IMG/VR virus record: IMGVR_UViG_2703718812_000010 | Length of the DNA stretch: 43,350 bases | Strand: one strand, 5' to 3' | Origin: a virus | Taxonomy: Duplodnaviria > Heunggongvirae > Uroviricota > Caudoviricetes | Shown: one piece after another, positions 1-22,414 of the stretch | Numbering within the stretch: position 1 is the stretch's first letter | How the letters are laid out: the number at the start of each line of letters is the position of its first letter | Notes under the pieces: generated by a model | The model's database searches: none | What the model was told of the DNA's origin: nothing | What the model saw: only the letters and a program-made list of their open reading frames with translations | Program-made: the position numbers and the translations under genes

Positions 1-142
1 AACAAACCTGAATCATGCCGCAATGAGCACGCTTCTTGGTGAGAGGATTATGGACCGCATGACCATGAACGGTGGTCGGTGGGTGACGTTTAACTGGGAT
101 AGCTGGCGTCCAAATGTCAGCAATCAGAGGGTTGTAAAGTAA
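1..142 (+). CDS. 3' end of an unidentified gene (partial, runs off window start)
   Basis: Open frame from window start to TAA at 140-142, read directly from sequence; no recognisable motif. Confidence 0.25.
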   Translation, partial: TNLNHAAMSTLLGERIMDRMTMNGGRWVTFNWDSWRPNVSNQRVVK

Positions 143-145
143 TTT

Positions 146-880
146 TTGTTGGAGGACGTTTTAATGGAAACTGTATTTGACGCACTGAAAGCACTGAAAA
201 AAGCCTCTTCACAGGTAGTGGCATCGCGCCTTGGAATCAGCCGCGAAGATGCTGTCAACGAACTGTGGAAACTGAAGCGCCGTGGTGAAGCGGATAACAA
301 GGGTTCGATGTGGTGGCTGATTCAGGCTGGTGAAAGTGAACCAGTGTCACCGGTACCGAAAGTGACAGCGCAAATGCTGACTGAGGCGATTGAACATCAT
401 GGCCCACAAACGGCGGATGAGCTGGCACTGATGTTCGGGATTACCTCCCGCCGGGCGAATTCATCACTGGCCATGGCAATCAGCAAAGGGCGTCTGATTC
501 GCGTGAATCAGGGCGGTAAATTTCGGTACTGCATACCGGGCGCTGATTTACCGGCAGAGCCGAAAGCCGCATCCATAGCGGAAACGGATGGTAAAGCCTT
601 TCCTCAGCCAGCAGGTGTTGCGTTACCAGTCGGGGAAGCGGAAACACAGGAAGAAATAAAAACGGAAAGTGTGGCGGTCACAGTGCAGTCACAGCCGTCG
701 TTCACCAGAAAGCATCCGGATGGTCTGATTTTACCATCGCTGCATGTGGCTAACCGCGAGCTGCGCCGGGCAAAAGGTCAGGTTCAGAAGTGGGAGCGAG
801 TCTGCGCCGCGCTGCGGGAGCTGAACAAGTGCCGGGATATTCTCCGGGATATTACCGCCACCAGAGAACAGCAGCGGTGA
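146..880 (+). CDS. hypothetical prophage protein, 244 aa
   Basis: Long ORF in ORF track; no motif recognised; start may be an internal Met. Context: cluster of small prophage-type genes. Confidence 0.45.
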
Positions 881-912
881 GTGGGTGGAAGACGTGGTGC
901 CGGGCGGAAATC

Positions 913-1194
913 ATGATACTCCGGCAGTGTGCGGGAACGAGGAAGGTAAAAAGCGTTGGCGCACTTATCGGACGAACTGAAGCGGCAGTGAGAACGAAGG
1001 CACGGGAGCTGGGCATCAGCATGATGTTACGTGGTGATTTTCACCCGTCGGCAAAATATTCTCAGCGTGATATTGAGCTGGCGCGGCAACTGCATCAGAG
1101 AGGCATGCAAAGAAGGGAAATTGCCAGAAAATTAGGCATGCCGCTGCGCATAGTGAATAACTACGTTTATTTCGACAGGAGGGTGTCTGCGTGA
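913..1194 (+). CDS. hypothetical HTH-repeat protein (start moved to internal ATG of ORF 790..1194)
   Basis: ORF 790..1194 overlaps the previous gene; internal ATG at 913 gives a 93 aa product with repeated motifs of the form (I/V)A/G..LG.S and RREIARKLGM resembling helix-turn-helix units. Confidence 0.35.
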   Translation: MILRQCAGTRKVKSVGALIGRTEAAVRTKARELGISMMLRGDFHPSAKYSQRDIELARQLHQRGMQRREIARKLGMPLRIVNNYVYFDRRVSA

Positions 1195-1418
1195 AAATCC
1201 TGTATCAGGATTACGGCCCGGTGGGGCAGGTGGTTATCAGCAGTACTGTAATGGAGTTTCGGAAGCATAACCGTGTGGTGGATGCTGTGCTGTTAACCTG
1301 TCCGGGGATATCGGCGAGTCGTGCAGGTGTGTTTATTATGAAGACTAAATTATATGGCAGTAAGGCGTGGATAAAGAAGGCGTATCGTGTAGCGTTGCAG
1401 GAGGTTAACAGTGAGTAA
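1191..1418 (+). CDS. hypothetical protein, 75 aa
   Basis: ORF overlapping stop of the upstream gene by 4 nt (translational coupling pattern). Confidence 0.35.
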   Translation: MKILYQDYGPVGQVVISSTVMEFRKHNRVVDAVLLTCPGISASRAGVFIMKTKLYGSKAWIKKAYRVALQEVNSE

Positions 1419-1722
1419 AATTAAAGAAATGCCGGTAGTTCGTGACGGATATGGCTACTGGACACATCCTGAATATGAAAAATTCTGTGATGGTCGGGAA
1501 TATATTTCAACGGAAGAGTTTAACGCCTGGATGGAGGAAAATAATCTTCAATACGTCCTCTGCTTCAGAGATGAAGGATGTGCTGACCTTGATGCGTGTG
1601 ATGCTGATATTTCTGCATGGGAACCGGAACGACCAGAGGGCGATGGCTGGTTTATTGGTTCCATTCATGATACGGAAGATGGCCCGGTTTGTGTCTGGTT
1701 GCGAAATAAGGCTGAAGCATAA
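1411..1722 (+). CDS. hypothetical prophage protein, 103 aa
   Basis: ORF in operon-like arrangement with flanking small genes; acidic, Cys-containing; no confident family assignment. Confidence 0.4.
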   Translation: MSKIKEMPVVRDGYGYWTHPEYEKFCDGREYISTEEFNAWMEENNLQYVLCFRDEGCADLDACDADISAWEPERPEGDGWFIGSIHDTEDGPVCVWLRNKAEA

Positions 1723-1849
1723 AGGCGATAAACCAACTAACAACTAAATACTGAAGATTTAAATCAGAAACGATTTTTATTAAATCCTTAACCGGAGGGA
1801 TTCCTGCACCCTCAGAACATCAGGAGGCCGCCCGAAAGGGCGGTAAGAA

Positions 1850-2068
1850 ATGAAACATTATTTAGAAAAAAATTACCCACGAAAGAGCAGAACAACAGAG
1901 TTTCTGTTTTTCATTCTGTTTATAGTGTTGATGATACCGATATCCCCGCTATTACTGGTCTGGATAATTGGAAGGACATTTGAACCAGTTATTGAGCTAT
2001 ATACCGATGTGACATGGGAATCATTCAGCGCACTGCACAATAAAATTAATCCGTATAAGGAAAACTGA
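1850..2068 (+). CDS. small membrane protein, 72 aa
   Basis: Hydrophobic stretch FLFFILFIVLMIPISPLLLVWIIG predicted as a TM helix; preceded by AGGAGG and a GNRA-loop hairpin. Confidence 0.4.
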   Translation: MKHYLEKNYPRKSRTTEFLFFILFIVLMIPISPLLLVWIIGRTFEPVIELYTDVTWESFSALHNKINPYKEN

Positions 2069-2069
2069 T

Positions 2070-2627
2070 ATGAGCACTATTACCAGAGAACGCGCGGAGA
2101 TTAAATCATACATCACAGGCTTCCTGAGCGACTCGGCGCACGATAACAAGTCTTCAGACAGCCTGCTGGCTAATGTGTTTCGTATCGCGCTGGCATCACT
2201 GGAAGCAGAGCCGATAGCAATGGTAGTGCCTGATGAAATGGATTTGCTTACCTGCCATCTCGACGGTGTAACTAAAACATATGCTGATGGCTGGAACGCC
2301 TGCCGCGTCGCCATGCTTCAGGCCGGAAACTTTCGGGAAAATAAGAATTCGTCAACCAACAATTTTCGGGAAATCTCGGAAACGTCAACCAGATCTCCGA
2401 TAACTCTGGATGGCTGGATAAGCTGTACTGAGCGAATGCCTGAAAAGAGCCAGAACGTGCTTATTTCGATGAATATCGATAGCGAGGCTGGGCCATTAAT
2501 ATATTCCGCACGCTATCTCGGAGGCACGTTCCGGCGCGGAGGTATAGCAGTTAGTCCGGGTAATGATCTTAGGCAAGCAACCCACTGGATGTCGCTACCA
2601 GAACCGCCGCAGGAGGTGAATCAATGA
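2070..2627 (+). CDS. hypothetical prophage protein, 185 aa (C-terminal WISCTERMPE region reminiscent of DUF551-type prophage proteins)
   Basis: ORF starts 1 nt after the previous stop; family resemblance is from memory only and was not searched. Confidence 0.45.
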   Translation: MSTITRERAEIKSYITGFLSDSAHDNKSSDSLLANVFRIALASLEAEPIAMVVPDEMDLLTCHLDGVTKTYADGWNACRVAMLQAGNFRENKNSSTNNFREISETSTRSPITLDGWISCTERMPEKSQNVLISMNIDSEAGPLIYSARYLGGTFRRGGIAVSPGNDLRQATHWMSLPEPPQEVNQ

Positions 2628-2917
2628 CCTGGCCTGAAGCATTCACAACGGTAGGAATTGCGATGGCGGTGGCGCTGGTGGTGTATTCGATTTGCCGCTG
2701 GGGATAAAAACGGTTTGCGGGAAAAGGATAGTTAAGTAGAATTGCAGCGGGTGCTTGAGGCTATCTGCCTCGGGCATGAACACCAACGGCAGATAGAGAA
2801 AAGCCCCAGTTAACATTACGCGTCCTGCAAGACGCTTAACATTAATCTGAGGCTCAATCCATGCTGAACACATGTAGGTTAGCCTCTTACGTGCCGAAAG
2901 GCAAGGAGAAGCAGGCT

Positions 2918-3073
2918 ATGAAGCAGCAAAAGGCGATGTTAATCGCCCTGATCGTCATCTGTTTAACCGTCATAGTGACGGCACTGGTAACGAGGAAAGA
3001 CCTCTGCGAGGTGCGAATCCGAACCGGTCAGACGGAGGTCGCTGTCTTCGTAGACTACGAATCTGAGAAGTAA
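2918..3073 (+). CDS. hokD: Hok/Gef family type I toxin (HokD/RelF-like), 51 aa
   Basis: Translation MKQQKAMLIALIVICLTVIVTALVTRKDLCEVRIRTGQTEVAVFVDYESEK has the Hok architecture: one TM helix followed by the conserved RK.LCE.R....EVA.F..YE periplasmic tail. AGGAGA sits 8 nt upstream of the ATG at 2918. The ORF-track start at 2861 is an in-frame upstream extension. Confidence 0.75.
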   Translation: MKQQKAMLIALIVICLTVIVTALVTRKDLCEVRIRTGQTEVAVFVDYESEK

Positions 3074-3080
3074 GAGACCA

Positions 3081-3103
3081 GGCGGGGGAGTAATCTCCCG
3101 CCA
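3081..3103 (+). other. 3' stem-loop of the hok transcript (GGCGGGGGA / TCTCCCGCC)
   Basis: Imperfect 8-9 bp inverted repeat immediately after the hok stop; no T-tract follows, so more likely an mRNA-stabilising end structure than an intrinsic terminator. Confidence 0.35.
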
Positions 3104-3192
3104 CCTCTGATGTGTCAGGCATCCTCAACGCACCCGCGCTTTACCATACTGAAAATGCTGTTTGAATGTTCATCTCTGAAAGAGGACTATGA

Positions 3193-3537
3193 ATGAAAAA
3201 GGTATTGATTGCAGCACTTATTTCCGGTGTGTCTTTTGGCGCTTTTGCACAGCAGGGTGGTTTCCAGGGGCCAGAAGCAGAGCGTTCAACAGTAGCGCAG
3301 GCAAAAGAACTGAAGGATGATGCATGGGTTATCCTTGAAGGGAGCATCGTTAAAAAAGTGGGTGATGAACGTTATGAGTTTCGTGACAATAGCGGGACAA
3401 TTGTCACGGATATTGATGACAGCGTATGGGCCGGGCAGAATGTTTCTCCGAAAGACAAAGTAAGAATTGAGGGTGAAATTGATAAAGACCTGAGCAGTGT
3501 TGAAGTTGATGTAAAGGCACTGAAATTATTAAAGTAA
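3193..3537 (+). CDS. YgiW/YdeI-family periplasmic OB-fold (BOF) protein, 114 aa
   Basis: N-terminal signal peptide MKKVLIAALISGVSFGAFA; remaining sequence resembles the BOF stress-protein family. Confidence 0.65.
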   Translation: MKKVLIAALISGVSFGAFAQQGGFQGPEAERSTVAQAKELKDDAWVILEGSIVKKVGDERYEFRDNSGTIVTDIDDSVWAGQNVSPKDKVRIEGEIDKDLSSVEVDVKALKLLK

Positions 3538-3546
3538 CCGCCCCTG

Positions 3547-3573
3547 CTTGTTAAGCCCGTCTTACTGACGGGT
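3547..3573 (+). terminator. intrinsic terminator after the YgiW-like gene
   Basis: Stem CCCGTC (3547-3552) / GACGGG (3558-3563) followed by TTTTCTGTTT. Confidence 0.55.
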
Positions 3574-3658
3574 TTTCTGTTTGTACATTCCGGCGTATTG
3601 CCTTACAATTCGCGCAGTCAGCCTGAACAACTGACACCTGCTGTCACCGGAGAATCCG

Positions 3659-3862
3659 ATGACACAACACATAAAATCCCACAATTCTGAAGCCGACCCG
3701 GAAATTAAGCAGGGGAGGCGTTTTCGTGCGCCTCAGTATGGCTGGTTTCACTATCTGTTCTGTACGATCGATGAGGCAGATATGTGTAACCAGGTGAATC
3801 ATTTGATACCGACAAGGGTTTTAGTGAAAGGAGGTGAAATCACCTGTAAGATGCTGAAATAA
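3659..3862 (+). CDS. hypothetical protein, 67 aa; ends 10 bp before the prophage left terminus
   Basis: ORF only; could be an intact small gene or the remnant of a gene disrupted by the insertion. Confidence 0.3.
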   Translation: MTQHIKSHNSEADPEIKQGRRFRAPQYGWFHYLFCTIDEADMCNQVNHLIPTRVLVKGGEITCKMLK

Positions 3863-5185: not shown

Positions 5186-7276
5186 ATGTGGGTAACAGCA
5201 AAAGAATGTGTTGGTCTTCCTGATTTACCAATGATGGAACATAACATTCGCCATCGACTCACAAAAGCAGCTGCGGGAAATGCAGCCATGTTACGCAAAC
5301 GTAAGGGGACAAAAGCAATCGAATTTAATATCGATTGTTTGCCTTCTGGCGCGCAACAAGTATTGCGTGAACGTTATGCCCTTCAACTGATGACGCAAAA
5401 AGCTGATGAATCACCGGCTCCGGTGGTGACAAAGGCCAGACGCTCGCCTGCCGTGGTTGATGCGGTGGAGGCATATCGCGGATCACCACAACTGATGGTT
5501 GAACGCCTTAATGCCCTGACTGAAAACCAGCGCCAGGTGGCTGATGCACGAATCGCGATCGTCAGCGAAGTGATGAAAGTCGCGCAACAACCCGGTTTCA
5601 GCTGTGCGAAAGCTATCCGGTTTATCGTTGACAACCTGGCACGTTCGCAACTGGACGAGCGCATTGTGGCAATGGTTGAGACGGCGAACGCCAAAAAGGG
5701 AAACAGCCGTGCGTTGAGTGAAATAACGCTGAAACGCTGGATTGCGGCCTTTAACAAGGCGCAGAACGCCGCTGAACGCCTGCTTTTACTGGCACCGGGT
5801 AAGCGCCAGGAAATAAAAGCCGAAGATATTAACTGGCTGCCCGAATTTCTGGCGCAGTATCGCCAGTCAAACGGCCGACCAATGACCGAGGCTTACGAGG
5901 ATTTTGTCGCTGAATGGCAGCACCGGCACGCTGATGAGCCTTATATGCTCGATATCATGCCGTCTTATGACACCATTCGCCGCGCAATGAAGAAACTGCC
6001 GGAAGTGGTGAAACAAAAAGGCCGGGTGACCGGCAGTGAATACCGCCAGCTTGAGGGATTCACGCGCCGCGACTGGTCCAGAATGCCGGTGAATTATGTC
6101 TGGATTGGTGACGGTCACGGCATGAAGCTGAAATGCGCACACCCGGTTCACGGTCGGCCATTTGCACCGGAAGTGACCTTTGTTATCGACGGTGGCACGC
6201 GCTTTGTGGTGGGCTGGAGCCTTGACCTGGCTGAAAATGTTTTCGCCGTAGCCGGTGCCATACAGCACGGCATTCGCCATCACGGCAAACCGTTTCTGTA
6301 TTACTCGGATAACGGCTCCGGGGAAACCGCCGACATCCTGGATAAGGAGGTTGTGGGGATACTGCCGCGACTGGGGATTAATCACCCGACCGGGATTGCC
6401 GGTAATCCGCAGGGACGAGGCATTATCGAACGGCTTAACCGCACATTACCGATGCGCATAGCCCGTAAATACCGCACCTATTTCGGGAAAGGTGCAGATC
6501 GCGAGACGTTACGCAAAACCAACCGCGATTTACGCTCGGCATTTACTGCCCTGCAACAGGGCAAACGGCTGAACGCCCGGCAGCAGTCAGCGATGCGTGA
6601 TTTACCGTCCTGGTCTGAACTGATTGATGCCATTCGTGACGGTGTTGAGTGGTACAACAACCGGCCGCACGATGAATTACCGGTGAAGCCGAACGGCAAG
6701 CATTACAGCCCGGCGGAGTTCAGAAAAAAACGCCTGGCGGAAGAGGACACGGAAATTGAATGGCTGTCCGATGTTGAGCTGCGGGATATGTTCCGGCCGA
6801 TGGTGGAACGCCCTGTAAGACGCTGTGAAATACGCTGGCTGAATAATATTTACTACGCGCCCGAGCTGCGTGACGAGCATGGTCGTAAGGTGCTTATCAG
6901 CTATGACATTCATGATGCCGAACGAATTACCGTACGTCGCCTGGATGGCAGCGTGATTTGCGAGGCGGTATGGGACGGTAATAAACGCGAAGCCTTCCCG
7001 GTTAGCGCGGAATACTACAAACAGCAGCAACGCCTTAAAGGCATGCGTAAACGCGCAGAGGAAAAAATCCGTGATGCCGAGGATGAGGTTGTCAACGTGC
7101 TGGAGCACAAGCCGCAGGAGCCCTGGCTGGAAAACATATACCGCCCTGTGGGTAATACGGTGACCGTTCAGCAACCGGTCGCTGACGATGAACCTGATGA
7201 AGAATACGAGCGTAATTTCCAGCGGGGATTGCAGTTGCTGGAAGCGAAATTAAAAGAAAATGACCCGCTGGCCTGA
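5186..7276 (+). CDS. Mu-type DDE transposase (MuA-like), 696 aa
   Basis: N-terminal end-binding-like domain; candidate catalytic triad in WIGDGH / YSDNGS / GIIERLN blocks; size and position match MuA. Confidence 0.9.
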   Translation: MWVTAKECVGLPDLPMMEHNIRHRLTKAAAGNAAMLRKRKGTKAIEFNIDCLPSGAQQVLRERYALQLMTQKADESPAPVVTKARRSPAVVDAVEAYRGSPQLMVERLNALTENQRQVADARIAIVSEVMKVAQQPGFSCAKAIRFIVDNLARSQLDERIVAMVETANAKKGNSRALSEITLKRWIAAFNKAQNAAERLLLLAPGKRQEIKAEDINWLPEFLAQYRQSNGRPMTEAYEDFVAEWQHRHADEPYMLDIMPSYDTIRRAMKKLPEVVKQKGRVTGSEYRQLEGFTRRDWSRMPVNYVWIGDGHGMKLKCAHPVHGRPFAPEVTFVIDGGTRFVVGWSLDLAENVFAVAGAIQHGIRHHGKPFLYYSDNGSGETADILDKEVVGILPRLGINHPTGIAGNPQGRGIIERLNRTLPMRIARKYRTYFGKGADRETLRKTNRDLRSAFTALQQGKRLNARQQSAMRDLPSWSELIDAIRDGVEWYNNRPHDELPVKPNGKHYSPAEFRKKRLAEEDTEIEWLSDVELRDMFRPMVERPVRRCEIRWLNNIYYAPELRDEHGRKVLISYDIHDAERITVRRLDGSVICEAVWDGNKREAFPVSAEYYKQQQRLKGMRKRAEEKIRDAEDEVVNVLEHKPQEPWLENIYRPVGNTVTVQQPVADDEPDEEYERNFQRGLQLLEAKLKENDPLA

Positions 7277-7347
7277 AATAAAAAAATAACCCGAGCGGCG
7301 ACTCAGGTTATTTGATTAAACAAGGTATCAAATGAGAGGTTAATAAT

Positions 7348-8280
7348 ATGACTGATATTAACGATGTAATCAAGACCATTGATGAACTTATTGATGGCGG
7401 CGTACTGACGCAGTATGCCATCGCCAGAGAGGCGGGAATTTCCGACGGCACATTATCGGCTTTCCGTAAGGGAAAATATAAAGGCGATAACGCTGCTGTG
7501 GCTGCTTCCCTGCGTTCCTGGTATGAGAACTGGAATAAACAAAGCGCACTGCCGGAACCGCCGCAGTTTGTGGAAACGCAGACAGTCCAGGAGCTGCGCG
7601 CACTGTTTCAGGCGGTTCGTCTGATGGGCTGTATTAACGTTATTGTGGGCGTACCGGGTGTGGGTAAAACGGCCACTGCCCGTAATTACTGCCAGGAGCA
7701 ACCAAACACCTGGATGATCACCCTGTCACCCGCGCACTCCAGCGTCACGGAGTGTCTGCTGGAGCTGGCCGATGCGCTGGGGATTGATTACACCCGCGCG
7801 AACAAAGGGGCATTATCCCGCGCCATCCGCCGTCGCCTGATGGGAACGCGTGGACTGGTTATTGTGGATGAGGCGGATCATCTTGGTATTGACGGTCTGG
7901 AGCAACTCCGGGCAATTCAGGACGCCACGGGGATCGGGATGGTGCTTATTGGTAACCCGCGCGGATTGTTTAAAGGTGGACGCCGCACCTTTGATGATTT
8001 ATCGCGCCTGTTCAGCCGTCTTGCCCGTACAAAACAACTTCGCAAGGCCAAAAAGGCGGATGTGCTGGCCATTGCCAGGGCGTGGGGGATCAGTGGTGAG
8101 GCCGAGCTGGCCGTCATGCAGGCTATCGCTGAAAAGCCGGGAGCGTTACGCGTTCTGACACATACGCTTAACCAGGCGTGGCTCACCGCCAGCGGTGAAG
8201 GCGCGGCGCTGACAGAAAAACATATTAATGCGGCCTTTAAAGAGGTTTATACCAACCCTGAATTACTCTCACAGGTGTGA
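7348..8280 (+). CDS. MuB-like AAA+ ATPase, transposition target-DNA activator
   Basis: Walker A GVPGVGKT and Walker B LVIVDEADHL; 310 aa; immediately downstream of the transposase. Confidence 0.9.
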   Translation: MTDINDVIKTIDELIDGGVLTQYAIAREAGISDGTLSAFRKGKYKGDNAAVAASLRSWYENWNKQSALPEPPQFVETQTVQELRALFQAVRLMGCINVIVGVPGVGKTATARNYCQEQPNTWMITLSPAHSSVTECLLELADALGIDYTRANKGALSRAIRRRLMGTRGLVIVDEADHLGIDGLEQLRAIQDATGIGMVLIGNPRGLFKGGRRTFDDLSRLFSRLARTKQLRKAKKADVLAIARAWGISGEAELAVMQAIAEKPGALRVLTHTLNQAWLTASGEGAALTEKHINAAFKEVYTNPELLSQV

Positions 8281-8504
8281 TTATGGCGGTATTTAATATT
8301 CCTGATATTTACGGACGCTTTTACCTGGTTAATTTCGATAACGTGAAGGTGATTTCACTGGCCGAAAATAAAGAATGTGGCGATTTACTTTTTGAATTTA
8401 ATGACCGCACACGAATGGTGATATCTGCCGGACTTGATCGAGAAGGTGCGACAGACGTTTACAGCGGAATATGCCGTTCTGTTGGTGCGAAACAAGTCAG
8501 CTAA
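8277..8504 (+). CDS. hypothetical early protein, 75 aa
   Basis: Start overlaps the B stop; first gene of the accessory early operon. Confidence 0.45.
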   Translation: MIMAVFNIPDIYGRFYLVNFDNVKVISLAENKECGDLLFEFNDRTRMVISAGLDREGATDVYSGICRSVGAKQVS

Positions 8505-8771
8505 ATGAGGTGTTATATGAATATGCAATCCTGCGGTAACAAAATGAATTTATTCGACTCCCTGAACAGCGCGCGCCGTCTGACCGAACTTGCCGGTGCG
8601 GTACTGGAACGCAGTAAGCGCTATCCGCAACGTTTTGCACTGAAAACCACGCCGCCGGTAGGCAACGTGCAGGGAACCGGTGAAATTGAAATCACCATAC
8701 AGACCAACGGCCTGCGCCGCCGTGTGAAGGCCACCCGCATCAGCGGCTGCACGGTTTACTGGGAGGTGTGA
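8505..8771 (+). CDS. hypothetical early protein, 88 aa or shorter
   Basis: Tightly packed ORF; several possible in-frame starts. Confidence 0.4.
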   Translation: MRCYMNMQSCGNKMNLFDSLNSARRLTELAGAVLERSKRYPQRFALKTTPPVGNVQGTGEIEITIQTNGLRRRVKATRISGCTVYWEV

Positions 8772-8772
8772 G

Positions 8773-9054
8773 GTGAAAAAAAATCTCATTGCATGGGCGT
8801 GGTCGAGTGGTCTTATTGAGTTTGGTTACGTCCTGCCGGAAGGTGCATTGCCGATAGTTGCCGGAAAGCCTGCCACGGTACGGCATGTGATTGAGGTTAT
8901 GGCGCGTCATGGACGTGATGAACAGGAGCAGTTACTGGTTCCGGGGATACCGGAAGCGGTGACGGAGGAAGAAGCCTTTAATGCCATGATTCGGTTCTGC
9001 CGTGAGGTCAGACGCCGGGTCAGTTATCCAAACAGAACGAGGACCAGAGGATGA
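8773..9054 (+). CDS. hypothetical early protein, 93 aa
   Basis: ORF 2 nt after the previous stop. Confidence 0.45.
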   Translation: MKKNLIAWAWSSGLIEFGYVLPEGALPIVAGKPATVRHVIEVMARHGRDEQEQLLVPGIPEAVTEEEAFNAMIRFCREVRRRVSYPNRTRTRG

Positions 9055-9323
9055 GTAAAGTCGTACGCATTATTTTCGAATACAAGGAGCACGTTATCCA
9101 TAAAAACGCTGATGGAACAGTGCGCATGGGGGTAAGTCTGGACATACGTTCAACCGGGATAAAGCAGAAGGGTGATGGACCCGCCATGATTTTTGGGGTG
9201 GTTATGCTCGCGGAAAGCAGAGACTTTGCTGAACTTGTGGCAATGAAAGCCAGTGCGCTCATGAAAGATATGAGCATGCGTTCCGGGGTTATTAAAGGTA
9301 ATGAATTTAATCAGCAGGGGTAA
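9051..9323 (+). CDS. hypothetical early protein, 90 aa (paralog A)
   Basis: Begins MSKVVRIIFEYKEH; the next gene begins MSKVRVIFEFKH, indicating a tandem duplication. Confidence 0.5.
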   Translation: MSKVVRIIFEYKEHVIHKNADGTVRMGVSLDIRSTGIKQKGDGPAMIFGVVMLAESRDFAELVAMKASALMKDMSMRSGVIKGNEFNQQG

Positions 9324-9327
9324 TTCC

Positions 9328-9621
9328 ATGAGCAAAGTACGCGTTATTTTTGAATTTAAGCATGTTTCGCATGACGAAAAACCGGCAGGCAATGACTGTG
9401 TTGAAGTGCATGAAAAGATTGGTGTGGATGTAAAAACAGAACGTGATACGAATAACAGGCCGACGTCACTCTGTGACGTTTATGCAAGTATTCTCCAGTA
9501 TCACAGTCCTGAAATTATTCAGTTTCTCTCAGCGGAATTTCAGGCATCTGTACAGGCTTTTGGGGCGGATGCCATCATTAAACGCCACCGCGTGCATAAA
9601 GCATCAGGCACACTGCAATAA
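9328..9621 (+). CDS. hypothetical early protein, 97 aa (paralog B)
   Basis: Internal ATG of ORF 9301..9621 with a GGGG-rich ribosome-binding region upstream; N-terminus parallels the previous gene. Confidence 0.5.
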   Translation: MSKVRVIFEFKHVSHDEKPAGNDCVEVHEKIGVDVKTERDTNNRPTSLCDVYASILQYHSPEIIQFLSAEFQASVQAFGADAIIKRHRVHKASGTLQ

Positions 9622-9632
9622 GGAAAAACAAA

Positions 9633-10163
9633 ATGGCAAAACGCGTTACAAAATTAAAGGCCGCAGCAGAGGCGGCACCGCAGACCCGTGAAGAGGTCAG
9701 TCGCGATATCCGCACCCTGGGCGATATTCAGCGAGAGGCGCTGCGGCTGGAAACGGCGATGAATGATGAAGTGGCAGAAATCACCGCCCGTTATACGCCG
9801 CAGATTGAAAACCTTAAAAAAGAAATCAAAGTGCTTTTTAAGGGGATTCAGGACTGGTGCAAAACCAACCGAGATGAGCTGACGAACGGCGGCAAAACCA
9901 AAACTGCCAATCTGACCACCGGAACGGTGTCATGGCGACTGGGGAATCCATCATGCAGCGTCAGTCGTGATGTGGAAGGTGTGATTGAAATGCTGCGCCG
10001 TATGGGCCTTGAGCGTTTTATCCGCACGAAAGAGGAAGTGAACAAGGAAGCGGTCCTGGCGGAGCCGGATGCGGTGAAAGGGATTGCCGGTATTAAGGTG
10101 AATAAAGGCGCTGAAAGTTTTTATGTCGAGCCTTTTGAACAGGACGCTGGACTGAATAAATAA
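9633..10163 (+). CDS. gam: Gam-like host-nuclease inhibitor (Mu Gam family)
   Basis: 176 aa ORF at the Mu gam position; N-terminal basic/coiled region then C-terminal domain; matches Mu Gam (174 aa) in size and sequence character. Confidence 0.8.
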   Translation: MAKRVTKLKAAAEAAPQTREEVSRDIRTLGDIQREALRLETAMNDEVAEITARYTPQIENLKKEIKVLFKGIQDWCKTNRDELTNGGKTKTANLTTGTVSWRLGNPSCSVSRDVEGVIEMLRRMGLERFIRTKEEVNKEAVLAEPDAVKGIAGIKVNKGAESFYVEPFEQDAGLNK

Positions 10164-10260
10164 CACCGCATTAATCAATTAAATATCACTTCGTTTTAAT
10201 TATGGCGCTCGCGTCAGGGGACTGCCTGCGCCTGTAAACTGAAAATAAGGAACAGGATAT

Positions 10261-10803
10261 ATGGCATATTTTTATTTCAAATTAGACCGTGTGCAGACAA
10301 ATAAATATTTCACCAAATATCAACAGACTGTTTTACCGCTACGCAACAGTATTCTTCGGGCATTACTGAAAAATACAGGCGCTGCCGGATTGCGCTTAAA
10401 GCCGTTTGCCATGGACGTAATCAGTGAGTTTTATTTTTCTGGTGCTCTGCCTGCGGGCTGGCGTAAGCGCGATGATGTGGCTTTTGTCGGGGACGGACCG
10501 TGCTTTATTGCCAGACCTGATGAGTCATGCCCTGAAGGACCGGCGATTGCCGCAATGATTGAAGCCGCTGAACGCGAGTTAAGAAAGCGTCCTGATTTCC
10601 TTGTCTGGCTCTGTGAAAAGCTGGGGGTAATGAGAATCCCCTCCATGTTTAACATGGACTCCTGGTGGACCCCGTCGCTCTCCCGTGATGCCCTGTGCGT
10701 GGTGTTTAAAGTAGGCGCTTATGGCAGGGAAATAAAAGGGGGTATTCCTGAAGAATGCCAGGAGATTAAACATTCTGAATATGTGGCGCTGACGGAGGAA
10801 TAA
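10261..10803 (+). CDS. hypothetical early protein, 180 aa
   Basis: ORF only. Confidence 0.45.
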   Translation: MAYFYFKLDRVQTNKYFTKYQQTVLPLRNSILRALLKNTGAAGLRLKPFAMDVISEFYFSGALPAGWRKRDDVAFVGDGPCFIARPDESCPEGPAIAAMIEAAERELRKRPDFLVWLCEKLGVMRIPSMFNMDSWWTPSLSRDALCVVFKVGAYGREIKGGIPEECQEIKHSEYVALTEE

Positions 10804-10806
10804 TTC

Positions 10807-11340
10807 ATGATTGATGCAAAAGTGCTTGAAGGGGTTAAAAACTGGCTGAGTATTTACGGGCGTCTGACCTGCGGCATTCTGGCTGAAAAAATGAATATGC
10901 CGCCATCCTCGATGGTTTATTTTCTGCGTGATGCGGTCGATGCCGGGGTGCTGACGGAATGTAACGGTTTTTATGATATTCCGCGTCCCCGCCCGGTGCA
11001 GCCGGTTCGTCGCAAATGCAGCCAGGAAGGTGCGGCTGATGATGTTCAGTGGTGCAGCTTCAGAAAATCCCTGCCGTGGATTGAGGGGCATGATATTCCG
11101 TCAATGGCGTGGGAATTTGCTCAGGGCGTTCTGACCTGTGAAACCGTTTATGTGGTGGCTGAAGTTGATGAGCAGGCCATGAAAGAAGGCGTGCCCCAGT
11201 TTGTGATGGCGTATATCGACATACGCCTGGGTGTCATTATCTGCGGTTTAAGCGGCTGGAATATCACCTCGCGCGTTCTGCGTTACCTGATTGTTGACCG
11301 GACGGCCGCGCCTGCTGGGATATCTGCGGAGGTGGCGTAA
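10807..11340 (+). CDS. hypothetical early protein, 177 aa
   Basis: ORF only; 4 nt after the previous stop. Confidence 0.45.
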   Translation: MIDAKVLEGVKNWLSIYGRLTCGILAEKMNMPPSSMVYFLRDAVDAGVLTECNGFYDIPRPRPVQPVRRKCSQEGAADDVQWCSFRKSLPWIEGHDIPSMAWEFAQGVLTCETVYVVAEVDEQAMKEGVPQFVMAYIDIRLGVIICGLSGWNITSRVLRYLIVDRTAAPAGISAEVA

Positions 11341-11855
11341 TGTTCTTTAAAACATCAAACCCTTCCGCGCTGGCCGCGTGGCAAAAATATCAGCAGGACT
11401 GCCAGAAAGTTAAGGATGAGGCAAAACGCCTTGAGGCCGTGCTGAATGTTGCGTGCCGGTCGGTATTTGTATCCGGTATCAGTGGCTTTTGTTTTAAAGG
11501 GCTGCGCTTTATGGATGACAAATATCCTTTTCATCGCGACTTATGGCGAAAACCGACTGCGTCGAATGGCTGGAGCTGCACACCGCGCACATCACGTATT
11601 CCCAAAGCCCTGCGCGTTGCCTCTGACGAACTTAACAGTCTGTGGCGTGAATATTCGCCCGTCACGTATGCCAGAACCGATGCACTGTTGTTCTGGCTGG
11701 GTATTGATTTCTCGGCAATCATGTTTGGCCCTGTGAAGTGGTTCTGCGTTGACGATGTGATTTACCTTGAGTGCGGCGTAAAACCCGCAAATCAGAAAAT
11801 GACCGAAATTCTGTCTGATGAGTTTTATGCTGCTGAAAAGCGAGTCAGGGGGTGA
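11340..11855 (+). CDS. hypothetical early protein, 171 aa
   Basis: ORF only; start overlaps the previous stop. Confidence 0.45.
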   Translation: MFFKTSNPSALAAWQKYQQDCQKVKDEAKRLEAVLNVACRSVFVSGISGFCFKGLRFMDDKYPFHRDLWRKPTASNGWSCTPRTSRIPKALRVASDELNSLWREYSPVTYARTDALLFWLGIDFSAIMFGPVKWFCVDDVIYLECGVKPANQKMTEILSDEFYAAEKRVRG

Positions 11856-11858
11856 TGT

Positions 11859-12410
11859 ATGATGATTTTACAACCCATGGGGCGAAAAGGTCAGGCACCT
11901 GCTCATGTCCGTGCGTGGACACCTGAAGAAGATGCGCTGCTGATTGCGCTTTATCCATCCACCCCGGTTAAGGATATTGCTGTCAGGGTAAAAAGAAGTT
12001 TCTGGGGTGTACATAACCGGATTGTTTTATTACGCGGTACTTACCCGGAGTTGCTCAAATGCAAACGTCCAAGATTTAAACATGATGAAGATAAATTTAT
12101 CCGAAAAAATGCCAGAACGATGACCGGTAAGCAAATAGGAGAATATCTGGGGCGAGACCGGGATTCTGTCCACAATCGGGCGCGATATATTGGCGTAAGC
12201 ATGAAAAAATACGGAGAATTGCTGCCCTTCACCCGTATACCTGACGATGATGTTCATCTTATTCGTGAATTACGGGATGCTGAATCACCACGACGTCTTA
12301 CCTTCCGGGAAATAGGCGAGAAATTTGAATTATCCGAGAGTACGGTGAATTTTATTTATCACCATCGCCGGACTGCCGAGGACGCTGTATTACGGGAGTT
12401 AACGCCATGA
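11859..12410 (+). CDS. putative DNA-binding protein with three tandem HTH-like repeats, 183 aa
   Basis: Three roughly 40 aa repeats (..VKDIAVRVKRSFWGVHNRI.. / ..TGKQIGEYLGRDRDSVHNRARYIG.. / ..LTFREIGEKFELSESTVNFIYHHRR..). Confidence 0.45.
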   Translation: MMILQPMGRKGQAPAHVRAWTPEEDALLIALYPSTPVKDIAVRVKRSFWGVHNRIVLLRGTYPELLKCKRPRFKHDEDKFIRKNARTMTGKQIGEYLGRDRDSVHNRARYIGVSMKKYGELLPFTRIPDDDVHLIRELRDAESPRRLTFREIGEKFELSESTVNFIYHHRRTAEDAVLRELTP

Positions 12411-12592
12411 TAAAGAGACTTGTATTTTTCGCAATTTTCGTTCCGGTGTTGGGGGTTGGTTTTATATTTGCGATTACAGGAAACCTGTCCATGATGCCAG
12501 ATATTTGGTTCTTTATCAGGATGTCGCTCTTCCTGTTTATTATGAATCTTCTTATCGACATATATATCCGTATTACTGGAAAACATAAATGA
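12407..12592 (+). CDS. small membrane protein, 61 aa
   Basis: Two hydrophobic segments; overlaps neighbours by 4 nt. Confidence 0.4.
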   Translation: MIKRLVFFAIFVPVLGVGFIFAITGNLSMMPDIWFFIRMSLFLFIMNLLIDIYIRITGKHK

Positions 12593-12963
12593 GAAAAATC
12601 ACGTCCTTGTCAGAGTTACAGGAGATGAATATGAGTATTGAATTAAGATCGTCTTATGAGTATCGCAAATTTCTTATCGCCGGAGGCATGAAACCGGAAG
12701 ATGTGGAAAAAATCGTTTCTTTTATGGATAAGGAATGTGATAAGCGGGATGTGTCAGAAATTATTATGGATGACATGATTCTGGATTCAGTCGTGGCGTT
12801 AAGTCCGTTATGGATTGTGCATTCTCTTGCGGAAATTGCCAAAGGCACCGATAAACAGGCAGCTGTTGCTGCCCTTCAGACGCTTAATGAAATGCGTATA
12901 TCTCCACGCCCGACATTAATACAGATGATTTTGTCCAGTATGGAGGATAAAGCAAATGAATAG
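12589..12963 (+). CDS. hypothetical early protein, 124 aa
   Basis: ORF only. Confidence 0.4.
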   Translation: MRKITSLSELQEMNMSIELRSSYEYRKFLIAGGMKPEDVEKIVSFMDKECDKRDVSEIIMDDMILDSVVALSPLWIVHSLAEIAKGTDKQAAVAALQTLNEMRISPRPTLIQMILSSMEDKANE

Positions 12964-13153
12964 TCTACCCGCTGGATGGGCGCGCCCTCTGATGGCTAAG
13001 AAGCATCATTTTTTTAAAACTGGCGATAATATCAGTATATGTAGGCGGTGGTTATATCTGGCTCATAATCGCGAGCCGGATACATTTGAAAGCCCTGATG
13101 ACTGTGCCGAATGTCGCAGAAGACTGAATAAGGAGAAAGATAATGGACAGTAG
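12956..13153 (+). CDS. hypothetical small protein, 65 aa
   Basis: ORF only; Cys-x-x-Cys pair (CAECRRR). Confidence 0.35.
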   Translation: MNSLPAGWARPLMAKKHHFFKTGDNISICRRWLYLAHNREPDTFESPDDCAECRRRLNKEKDNGQ

Positions 13154-13439
13154 TTCGCAGTTGTTCTGGTGTTTATATATCACATCGTTTTTCGGTGCAT
13201 TCGTCATTACACGATGGCTGTGCCGGAAAGTTATCAGTATTTTTCATAAAAAATACCTGATTGGGCTGGCGGCGACTTCTCTGATTAATGCACTTGCCAG
13301 ATATCATAAGGGGGAATACTACTCAAGAATAAAAACTGATGATGGTTTTAATATTTTTGTGATTCCTCCGGAGTATCGGGTTCAGCTCGATCGGGAAAGT
13401 AATATCTATCATATCAGCAGGAGTGTTGATACAGCATGA
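13143..13439 (+). CDS. small membrane protein, 98 aa
   Basis: N-terminal TM helix LFWCLYITSFFGAFVITRWL. Confidence 0.4.
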   Translation: MDSSSQLFWCLYITSFFGAFVITRWLCRKVISIFHKKYLIGLAATSLINALARYHKGEYYSRIKTDDGFNIFVIPPEYRVQLDRESNIYHISRSVDTA

Positions 13440-13945
13440 GAGGGAAACTGATATCCGCTATTCATGTGGCAAAGCACGAGCTTGCCCTAGATGATGAGAC
13501 CTACACATTCGTACTACTGGCAGCCACCGGCAAAACCAGCTGCCGGGATATGTCACCCGGTGAGTTATCCCGCGTGCTGGATGTTTTCAAAAAACGCGGT
13601 TTTAAAGTGCGTCAGAAACCGGTTAACCGGGCCTTAAAACCGGGTACGGTGACCGCCAAAATTCGCGCCATCTGGAAAGTGATGCACCGGCAGGGCTTTA
13701 TCTCTGATGGTGCGGAAACCGCTCTTAACCGCTGGGTGAAATCGCAGACGGCCGCGCAGAACGGCGGCGAAGGTGTGGCAAACTGGCAGTGGCTGGAGCA
13801 ACACCCCGCCCTGGCCTCAGATGTGCTGGAGCGTCTCAAGCGATGGCACCGCCGCAAAATGCTGGCCGCGATGGGAATGCCCGAACGCACGCTGATGGGG
13901 TATGACGCCGTTTGCAGGCAGTATGAAAAATCACTTCCCCGTTAA
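13436..13945 (+). CDS. Mu gp16/GemA-like protein (DUF1018 family)
   Basis: N-terminus MRGKLISAIHVAKHELALDDETYTFVLLAATGKTSCRDMSPGEL typical of gp16 proteins of Mu-like phages; last gene before the early-operon terminator. Confidence 0.65.
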   Translation: MRGKLISAIHVAKHELALDDETYTFVLLAATGKTSCRDMSPGELSRVLDVFKKRGFKVRQKPVNRALKPGTVTAKIRAIWKVMHRQGFISDGAETALNRWVKSQTAAQNGGEGVANWQWLEQHPALASDVLERLKRWHRRKMLAAMGMPERTLMGYDAVCRQYEKSLPR

Positions 13946-13949
13946 CCCC

Positions 13950-13980
13950 AAATCCCGCCACAACGCGGGATTTTTATTTT
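13950..13980 (+). terminator. intrinsic terminator at the end of the early operon
   Basis: Stem AAATCCCGC (13950-13958) / GCGGGATTT (13965-13973) followed by TTATTTT. Confidence 0.6.
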
Positions 13981-14014
13981 AAACTTACCGGGAACGCGAG
14001 AACCGGAGGCTGAT

Positions 14015-14440
14015 ATGGCAGAAACTCAGATGAGCATGTTTGGTGGTGACAGTGAGCAACTGCACGCCCTTATCGACCGCCTTGATGACATCCCTGATGA
14101 TGTTCTCAAAAAGAACTGGCCGCGGACCCTGTCAGAACTGGTTGAAGTCACCGGCGCAGAACTTCAGCGTCAGGGGATTGAGCCGGTACTGGCCGGTAAA
14201 CTGGCACGCAAGGTGGCTGCGGCTCAGGCAGCCTATATGGGCGGACGGGGTTATTACCTGCCGGTCGGGGAATCTCTCTTTGCCGAGCTGCGAAACAATG
14301 AGATATTTTCGCGCTGGGACCGGGGCGAGAAAATTGAATCCCTTCGCCGCCATTACCGGATGTCAGAAACCCAGATTTATACCGTCATACGCGAACAGCG
14401 CCGTCTGCATCTGGTAAGAACGCAACCGCCACTTTTCTGA
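14015..14440 (+). CDS. Mor/C-family transcriptional activator (middle/late gene activator)
   Basis: 141 aa; Mor/C-like sequence with C-terminal HTH region; lies between the early terminator and the lysis genes. Only one Mor/C-family gene was recognised in the window. Confidence 0.7.
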   Translation: MAETQMSMFGGDSEQLHALIDRLDDIPDDVLKKNWPRTLSELVEVTGAELQRQGIEPVLAGKLARKVAAAQAAYMGGRGYYLPVGESLFAELRNNEIFSRWDRGEKIESLRRHYRMSETQIYTVIREQRRLHLVRTQPPLF

Positions 14441-14511
14441 TATTCCGCAAAGCCTGCCGCCTCTCCTTCACCGTTACGCTGACTCAGAGAACATCATGAG
14501 ACAGCGTAACA

Positions 14512-15012
14512 ATGCCAAAACTCCCCGCACCACTGCGTAAAAAGCTGATTGCCCTTGTTCTGGCCGGTGCCGGGACGTTCACGATTGCCACGCATTACAC
14601 CGGTTACTGGGAAGGGAAAGAAAACTCCACGTATATCGATCCCACCGGTACACCCACCATCTGTTACGGCCATACCGGCCCGGATGTGAAACCGGGTATG
14701 ACCCTGACAGATGAAGAATGCCTGGAACTACTGGAAAAGGACATGAAATGGGCCTTTGCGGCCATTGATCGGCGTGTTCAGGTGCCGCTTACCCGTGGTC
14801 AGACGGTGGCGCTGGCTTCGTGGATCTTCTGGGCCGGTGAAACGAACTTTCGCAACTCCACGCTTCTGCGCCTGATCAATGCCGGGCAGATGCCCGCGTC
14901 CTGTAAGCAGTATATCCGCTGGATTTATTCAAAGGGGGTGAAACTCCCCGGCCTTGAGGCCCGCCGTTCGGCGGATGAATGGTTATGTCGCTACGACTTG
15001 CCGAAAGTCTGA
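14512..15012 (+). CDS. SAR endolysin (T4-type lysozyme fold, GH24-like)
   Basis: N-terminal signal-anchor-release-like hydrophobic segment LIALVLAGAGTFTIATHY followed by the catalytic E-x8-D-x5-T pattern (YWEGKENSTYIDPTGTPTICYGHTG). Confidence 0.8.
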   Translation: MPKLPAPLRKKLIALVLAGAGTFTIATHYTGYWEGKENSTYIDPTGTPTICYGHTGPDVKPGMTLTDEECLELLEKDMKWAFAAIDRRVQVPLTRGQTVALASWIFWAGETNFRNSTLLRLINAGQMPASCKQYIRWIYSKGVKLPGLEARRSADEWLCRYDLPKV

Positions 15013-21643: not shown

Positions 21644-21645
21644 CG

Positions 21646-21724
21646 GTCAGTGGCGGGGGTCGAACCCGCATACATGATCCACCCGGAGGCAGGCACCGAC
21701 TTTACCAGTTAAGCGTACACTGAC
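21646..21724 (-). other. tRNA-like structured element (probable tRNA remnant)
   Basis: On the minus strand: 7 bp acceptor-like stem (GTCAGTG / CACTGAC), D-arm-like hairpin with GG loop, T-arm GCGGG-TTCGACC-CCCGC abutting the 3' acceptor strand, total 79 nt; no anticodon stem could be formed and there is no CCA. Confidence 0.25.
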
Positions 21725-22238: not shown

Positions 22239-22381
22239 TTGTTTAAGGTATGCAAATGCATTACCTTACCCCCTTCAGGCGCGTGTCGTGATTTTCTAAC
22301 CTGTATTTAACGGGCTTTAAAATCTGCGTGAAGCGCCTTTGTATTTTTCCCCTGGAAGCACTTCCTGAAATCCCGCAAAAC

Positions 22382-22414
22382 CCGCCCTGAAAATTCCCGG
22401 CCTATGCTGCCGGA
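22382..22414 (+). promoter_or_regulatory. putative late promoter upstream of I, with shared CCGCCCTGAA motif
   Basis: The 10-mer CCGCCCTGAA (22382-22391) recurs upstream of com (41466-41475); both positions correspond to Mu late-activator-dependent promoters (PI, Pmom). Confidence 0.4.

Follow-up and report, generated by a model that had tools for sequence, protein, structure and literature searches.

A protein with two Myb/GcrA-like repeats and a divergent HTH in the early operon of a Mu-like prophage, and its shorter homolog in the surrounding lambdoid prophage

In the early genes of a Mu-like prophage, an open reading frame of 183 codons raised the question of what its product is built from, whether that product is related to a shorter protein encoded in the left flank, and what role in the phage such a protein might perform. 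The original prediction, made from the letters of the DNA, had proposed three HTH repeats of about 40 aa in the 183-aa protein, each with a VHNR signature, as well as a family of regulators shared with the second prophage. We examined those proposals throughout the window—that is, the whole stretch of DNA analyzed, the 43,350 nucleotides of the IMG/VR virus record IMGVR_UViG_2703718812_000010—and throughout the phages and bacterial genomes in which homologs were found.

The gene, its operon and the nesting of the two prophages

The open reading frame and its strand were just as described earlier (Table 1), and RefSeq annotates at the same coordinates a gene whose product, WP_000973021.1 'DNA-binding protein', is identical to the 183-aa protein; the RefSeq genes for both of the proteins considered here (WP_000973021.1 and WP_042353845.1) had 100% DNA identity to the window. 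Many STEC chromosomes matched the segment 11340–12600 at 100% identity, and 232 of the 5426 complete E. coli genomes carried it; the three-HTH family is present, through the Sp18-like Mu phages, in some 4% of the complete genomes of that species.

Upstream from the three-HTH gene are those for MuA, MuB, Gam, a protein with a Gp11_C domain and the phrog_2314 ORF; downstream are those for GemA, Mor, the lysis and head proteins, a Gin-like invertase and Mom: these neighbors identify the element that hosts the gene as a transposable phage of the Mu type. From MuA to GemA the genes form an overlapping or abutting chain. A promoter and terminator scan of 9500–14600 encountered no promoter-like site on the plus strand, and a single strong intrinsic terminator—a 9-bp stem with a T run, at 13950–13973—directly after gemA and before mor, which terminator is the boundary between the early and the middle operon. 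Since the genes abut or overlap, with no plus-strand promoter in the scanned part and with a terminator past gemA, the assignment of the gene to an early operon was correct.

Certain other features of this prophage deserve mention in their own right. The stop codon of the three-HTH gene overlaps, in an ATGA arrangement, a 61-aa strongly hydrophobic ORF (12407–12592), probably a small membrane protein, that matched no family. A 685-aa ORF (38402–40459) situated between the Gin-like invertase and Mom contains a sialate O-acetylesterase-like SASA domain plus a DUF6645, and is possibly a moron or a receptor-modifying enzyme. The Mu-like phage repressor (4141–4752, minus strand) is of the CI/HTH_3 type (Phage_CI_repr), whereas the c repressor of phage Mu is of a different type. 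Finally, the RefSeq annotation of a near-identical prophage (L001) includes a minus-strand 'tRNA-OTHER' at 22305–22384—about 21645–21724 of the window—amid the head-morphogenesis genes; ARAGORN found no tRNA anywhere in the window.

The original prediction had placed the two genes in two unrelated prophages of the same chromosomal region. The types are indeed unrelated, in that one element has the Mu-like markers MuA, MuB, Gam, Gp11, GemA, Mor and Mom, and the other the lambdoid markers Cro/CI, YdaT, DnaC-like, DUF1627 and RusA; but the two are not merely adjacent, the Mu-like prophage being nested within the lambdoid one. Positions 1–3784 and 42613–43350 were 100% identical to 5302–9085 and 9081–9818, respectively, of an uninterrupted lambdoid prophage in another genome (L002), where both segments are contiguous, so that the Mu-like element must have inserted into a lambdoid prophage. 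The insertion is bordered by a target duplication of 5 bp, ATATG, at 3780–3784 and 42613–42617, which length is a hallmark of Mu-type transposition. The gene disrupted by the insertion is a hypothetical one of the lambdoid prophage (8960–9232 of L002). The right terminus of the Mu-like element does not have the canonical ...CA ending, and both ends carry TTTGATAC(C) repeats. The nested junction occurred in no complete E. coli genome of the collection, and in other genomes the left end of the Mu-like element is joined to many distinct genes. That Sp18-like Mu phages insert into other STEC prophages has been documented (PMC10132054), and is documented as well by the annotations of LC727881 and LC727895.

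Table 1. Coordinates in the window of the genes, domains and elements described in the text.
Feature	Position	Strand	Evidence
Three-HTH gene, 183-aa product, pI 9.9	11859–12410	+	ORF with ATG start; RefSeq; phrog_323; AF2; dN/dS
Domain R1, aa 18–60, Myb/SANT/GcrA-DBD-like repeat	11910–12038	+	Helices 22–31/37–44/48–59; repeat HMM; hhalign
Domain R2, aa 72–113, second copy of the R1-type repeat, counterpart of S1	12072–12197	+	Helices 75–84/90–97/101–110; repeat HMM
Domain R3, aa 127–170, divergent HTH, plus C-terminal helix aa 173–181, counterpart of S2	12237–12368	+	Helices 129–140/149–156/160–169
Two-HTH homolog gene, proposed 105-aa product	877–1194	+	GTG 877; homolog lengths; AF2; phrog_323 alignment
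Domain S1, aa 5–48 of the 105-aa form, Myb/GcrA-like repeat	889–1020	+	
Domain S2, aa 60–104, C-terminal HTH, counterpart of R3	1054–1188	+	Helices 63–74/79–86/90–104; hhalign
Early operon: MuA, MuB, small ORFs, Gam, Gp11-like, phrog_2314 ORF, three-HTH gene, four small ORFs, GemA, terminator	5186–13973	+	
Sp18-like Mu-type prophage inside the lambdoid prophage	3785–42612		blastn against the uninterrupted lambdoid prophage L002; junction sequences

Architecture of the two proteins

The AlphaFold2 model of the 183-aa protein, built on 23 homologs and with a pLDDT of 85, was all-helical and consisted of three confident three-helix bundles plus one last helix. The bundles recur every 54 aa or so, some 40 aa of fold alternating with some 13 aa of linker; the fold prediction proposed at the outset therefore confirmed three HTH-like units. 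Whether those units are repeats of one another was a separate matter. In Smith–Waterman comparisons against shuffled sequences the similarities between the single sequences were not significant (z 2.0 for R1–R2, 1.8 for R2–R3 and 1.0 for R1–R3), for which reason profiles were needed. With hhalign, the family profiles of R1 and R2 matched at 98.3% (E 1.3e-14, 41 columns), while R3 versus R2 was marginal (65%, E 6e-5) and homology between R1 and R3 was unsupported (7%). A repeat HMM made exclusively from the 42 repeat units of six unrelated multi-repeat proteins assigned 42 bits to R1 (E 3e-15) and 38.7 bits to R2 (E 4e-14), against 1 bit to R3 (E 0.02). The VHNR motif, for its part, was absent from R3 and turned out to be specific to the allele in the window, the family as a whole conserving only W/F-x-x-x-E-D ... 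G-R ... V-x-x-R. The original prediction of three HTH repeats was thus right in its essentials, with the qualifications that R3 is a divergent HTH, only marginally similar to the repeat, and that the similarity became significant only at the level of profiles.

We conclude with considerable confidence that the 183-aa protein comprises two true repeats plus a third HTH that is either divergent or of a different kind. That third domain gave sub-threshold Pfam matches to HTH_AsnC-type, HTH_11 and Sigma70_r4, and the joint profile of R3 and S2 matched only designed HTH proteins, with LrpC and the region 4 of SigE at weak scores; S2 itself reached 21.2 bits, again below threshold, with HTH_7 (PF02796). 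R3 would thus resemble the region 4 of sigma-70, the AsnC-type HTH, or the resolvase HTH.

The gene in the left flank is situated after the Cro/CI, YdaT, O-like, DnaC-like and DUF1627 genes of the lambdoid prophage, and in RefSeq extends over 913–1194, encoding the 93-aa 'DNA-binding protein' WP_042353845.1. Its product has a pI of 11.3 and was modeled by AlphaFold2 as two three-helix bundles. The relationship with the Mu-like protein that had been suspected was borne out by both kinds of alignment that had been proposed for its verification: the residues 77–173 of the 183-aa protein aligned with the lambdoid protein by BLASTP at an E of 5e-12 with composition correction (29% identity over 97 aa), and the two profiles matched by hhalign at 99.3% (E 7.2e-21, 100 columns) in an alignment that spanned even the linker between the domains, K-[CY]-G-[DE]..P.T+ versus L-R-G-D.H.S.K. 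By segments, R2–S1 scored a z of 12.7 and R3–S2 one of 7.0, whereas the R1–S1 match was not significant on the single sequences; hence the two motifs that had been quoted for the shorter protein were the right counterparts of R2 and R3. Both proteins also matched phrog_323—the 183-aa protein over aa 2–182 with an E of 6.3e-59, and the 134-aa lambdoid ORF over aa 32–133 with an E of 2.5e-24—so that a single family is indeed present in a transposable Mu-like prophage and in a lambdoid one. The lambdoid protein therefore corresponds to the Mu-like protein minus the first repeat, that is, a repeat–HTH as opposed to a repeat–repeat–HTH arrangement.

The start of the lambdoid gene merits a separate consideration. 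The homologs of its product are mostly 100–105 aa in length; an alignment of 17 of these sequences with 57–82% identity displayed the invariant residues W7, A10 and E11, which are encoded in frame in the window upstream from ATG 913; the AlphaFold2 model of the 105-aa form has its helix 1 at residues 9–18, which helix would be truncated by a start at residue 13; and the phrog_323 alignment likewise begins upstream from ATG 913. On those four grounds we favor the GTG at 877 as the more likely start codon over the annotated ATG. That in-frame GTG (877–879) overlaps the TGA stop codon of the DUF1627 gene (878–880) in a GTGA coupling arrangement.

Distribution and conservation of the family

The family is already catalogued, as PHROG 323 and under the RefSeq name 'DNA-binding protein', and homologs were present in the early operons of Mu-like, P2-like, lambdoid and P1-like phages. 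A survey of 65 IMG/VR loci revealed two contexts. In the Mu-like one (43 contigs with full-length matches, plus one fragment) the order was fixed wherever the flanking genes were present and detectable, the homolog being located after the Gp11-like and phrog_2314 genes and before GemA and Mor, and this order held even in two contigs with only 44–45% identity in MuA. In the P2-like context (22 contigs) the gene was located upstream from the replication gene A—adjacent to it in 9 contigs and at 0.6–2.4 kb in the rest. In the P2-like phages and prophages taken together (loci L004–L007, L009 and L053–L075) the stop codon of the homolog often overlapped the start of gene A. In all 21 of the P2-like contigs that reached that far, a gene for a D12 Dam-like methyltransferase lay at most 1.3 kb upstream, and the arrangement of methylase, homolog and gene A recurred in Salmonella and Citrobacter prophages. 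A Vibrio P2-like phage had a two-domain form directly upstream from gene A, and neither the examined locus of that phage nor that of the Citrobacter phage Shae_phiSM contained a methylase; likewise, no D12 methyltransferase was found in the window, or in the examined flanks of Shae_phiSM, the Vibrio phage, the phage D6 and the lambdoid prophage.

The gene of the lambdoid prophage was searched for in the complete E. coli genomes by means of a 751-bp query that included parts of the neighboring genes: 520 of the 5426 had a match over at least 80% of the length, and 2260 a partial one. With respect to the phage Mu itself and the other classical Mu-like phages, a tblastn search of 50,697 phage records recovered no homolog at E ≤ 1e-3. 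Among the sequenced phages, the R1–R2 pair was found in Klebsiella phage proteins, in a mycobacteriophage DNA methyltransferase and in an HNH endonuclease (the gp103 of the mycobacteriophage Thibault, with 34% identity over R1–R2), and the R2–R3 pair in Vibrio phages and the P1-like phage D6.

When 1.84 billion cluster representatives were searched with a profile, 14,356 proteins passed E ≤ 1e-3, of which 3,106 also passed E ≤ 1e-10. Among the top 150 cluster matches, the full architecture of 180 aa, as a stand-alone protein, accounted for some 20 (the clusters being at 50% identity), while most of the others were proteins of 300–1100 aa with 3–10 tandem copies of the R1/R2 type. Examples of such multi-repeat proteins in the metagenomic family are P0035, P0036, P0039, P0080, P0130 and P0156; in P0035 nine repeats come after a ResIII/Helicase_C helicase, and P0036 and P0039 are repeats almost entirely. 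The R1/R2 repeat would therefore appear, from its sequence, to be a widely reused DNA-targeting module, with which generic role the fusions of the pair in helicases, DNA methyltransferases and HNH endonucleases are in agreement.

In the Mu-like phages of E. coli the three-HTH gene also exists as another allele, whose product shares about 71% of its aa with that of the window and whose flanks are 92–97% identical (window versus L031–L049). We considered, and rejected, a special diversifying selection acting on this allele, inasmuch as other early ORFs (8283–8504, 9328–9621 and 10261–10803) exhibited the same cassette-like mosaicism and the dN/dS between the three-HTH alleles was 0.24–0.30; a value around 0.25 indicates instead that the gene is kept by purifying selection.

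Proposed function and comparison with known systems

The reading that we favor, with some reserve, is that the 183-aa protein, with its three HTHs disposed like beads on a string, recognizes specific sequences and regulates, in an accessory capacity, transcription or DNA transactions of the phage or the host; that it is a transcriptional regulator is a plausible but more tentative statement. The word regulator is deduced here from the DNA-binding folds together with the label in the database; the binding to DNA and the manner of that binding are likewise presumed. The protein is small, basic and all-helical, with two Myb/SANT/GcrA-DBD-like repeats, a divergent HTH and a short C-terminal helix. 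In the R2R3 of c-Myb, the bipartite domain of the Tc3 transposase, and the archaeal CRISPR-repeat-binding protein Cbp1, tandem HTHs bind DNA with the third helix in the major groove, and all three were recovered here as matches of either fold or sequence. By analogy with these, each module might insert its third helix into the next major groove along the DNA, with the linkers setting the spacing, so that a monomer of three modules could read an extended asymmetric site of perhaps 15–20 bp; the lambdoid form, with its two modules, would read a shorter site. The protein would be made from the early promoter alongside the proteins for transposition and host takeover, which coexpression points to an accessory regulator of the DNA transactions of phage and host. 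Eukaryotic SANT-type domains can also bind proteins instead of DNA.

The synteny with gene A in the P2-like phages and with the O/P-like genes in the lambdoid ones is as compatible with a function in replication as with one in transcription. The protein might thus be an accessory factor for replication or another DNA transaction that binds near the origin or the phage ends and aids initiation, as would be suggested by its position directly upstream from gene A, often with an overlap and never at more than 2.4 kb, by the succession of the lambdoid gene to the O-like, DnaC-like and DUF1627 genes, and by the fusion of one multi-repeat relative to a helicase. We nevertheless regard this role as rather unlikely, because the Mu-like gene is some 3.6 kb from MuB among nonessential accessory ORFs, the replication of the Mu, P2 and lambda types has no shared mechanism, and the gene order may simply mirror the conserved early operons of related phages. 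The synteny with a Dam-like methylase in the P2-like phages, along with the circumstance that the DNA-binding domain of GcrA is the closest solved fold, would be consistent with a reader or targeting subunit linked to methylation, one that recognizes N6-methyladenine sites as GcrA does and couples a Dam-type methylation to the control of early genes or of replication; yet the loci with that synteny are mutually related and not independent, the fold is generic for HTH domains, and no D12 methylase accompanies the gene in the window or in the examined flanks of Shae_phiSM, the Vibrio phage and the lambdoid prophage, all of which makes such a function improbable. In the phage Mu, the host Dam controls mom. 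A more specific version—a phage reader of m6A-DNA that, together with the adjacent Dam-type methyltransferase, times gene A or early transcription in the P2-like phages, and that makes use of the host Dam in the Mu-like ones—is more doubtful still, although, if it were true, a GcrA-like epigenetic switch would exist outside the Alphaproteobacteria.

The weak matches to homing endonucleases and HNH proteins (phrog_1891, E 0.005; phrog_6156, E 0.016; PADLOC HEase, E 0.008), in addition to the identity of 34% with the HNH endonuclease of Thibault over R1–R2, might be interpreted as signs that the protein descends from the DNA-binding arm of a homing endonuclease or of another mobile-element enzyme, and persists as a decoy or a nuclease-less remnant devoid of a current regulatory role. 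This origin we consider very improbable in view of a dN/dS of about 0.25, the maintenance of the stand-alone architecture of 180 aa in some 20 clusters at 50% identity, and the stable position of the gene in two phage lineages; nor was any remnant of a nuclease found beside the three-HTH gene. As to whether the similarities between the repeats and between the prophages might arise from chance or composition, the lack of significance of the repeat comparisons on single sequences would be compatible with that explanation, but the E values of 1e-14 for R1–R2, 7e-21 for the two proteins and 5e-12 by BLASTP, plus the independent matches to the repeat HMM, render it practically negligible.

This analysis provides a precise domain description for a family that was already catalogued—two Myb/GcrA-like repeats plus a divergent HTH—and corrects the annotation with regard to a misleading name and a probable miscall of a start codon. 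The same putative DNA-binding module is seen to be exchanged among Mu-like, P2-like, P1-like and lambdoid phages. No new kind of system is opened up by the three-HTH family, which is of value as a defined candidate for studies on DNA binding and regulation in STEC prophages. A search of the literature found no experimental study of any member.

With respect to known families, no Pfam or NCBIfam model exceeded its curated threshold on the 183-aa protein, a single-sequence search of the PDB produced nothing useful, and a whole-chain Foldseek search gave nothing significant, as would be expected for small domains that are flexibly linked. The closest catalogue entry is phrog_323 ('transcriptional regulator, D5-like', in the category of transcription regulation), which both proteins of the window match, and whose label is purely computational, with no source for the term 'D5-like' having been found in the literature. 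The name 'AsnC family protein' that NCBI applies to many of the homologs (P0001–P0032) is a misnomer: the only likeness to AsnC/Lrp is a sub-threshold match of R3 to PF13404 (22.4 versus 27 bits), and the name is wrong because the alpha/beta ligand-binding domain, RAM or AsnC_trans_reg, has no match on the 183-aa protein, whose model is all-helical. Membership among the HNH or homing endonucleases was rejected too, in that no catalytic domain is present, the matches correspond to DNA-binding arms, and three HTH bundles fill all 183 aa.

The DNA-binding domain of the Tc3 transposase (1u78), Cbp1 (2lvs) and the tandem homeodomains are likewise small HTH bundles on short linkers, an arrangement that yields an elongated asymmetric DNA site; of these, Cbp1 was matched by both profile (E 6e-4) and fold; the similarity, however, is distant, with other biological roles and no shared synteny. 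With the GcrA of Caulobacter (5yiu, PF07750) the repeats of the window share the fold of the N-terminal DNA-binding domain, but that domain is present in tandem copies rather than singly and is not followed by the C-terminal domain that interacts with sigma70: neither protein had a match to PF07750 at E ≤ 1, the remainder of each consisting of further HTH bundles.

The likeness to the Myb/SANT domains (PF00249 and PF13921) resides in the three-helix bundle, with helices 2 and 3 as the HTH, and in the tandem repeats of about 50 aa; the reference structures are those of c-Myb (1h88 and 1h89), WER (6kks) and the Myb3 of T. vaginalis (3zqc). The R1/R2/S1 profile matched that Myb3 at an E of 7.5e-5 and c-Myb at 1.2e-4, along with Cbp1 as cited above. 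The 183-aa protein is below the gathering thresholds of the two Myb models (14.7 versus 24.4 bits for PF00249, and 15.0 versus 22.9 for PF13921), whereas the homolog P0034 just reaches 24.4 bits with the Myb Pfam model, and several homologs carry precomputed matches to PF00249 or PF13921. From the Myb tryptophan triad only the first position is kept—as W20, invariant, in R1, as F73 or W in R2, and as W7 in S1—the later tryptophan positions being occupied in all three domains by aliphatic residues. Compared with the Myb proteins of eukaryotes, then, the phage protein combines two repeats of this general design with a third HTH that is not of the Myb type, and does so in the context of a phage.
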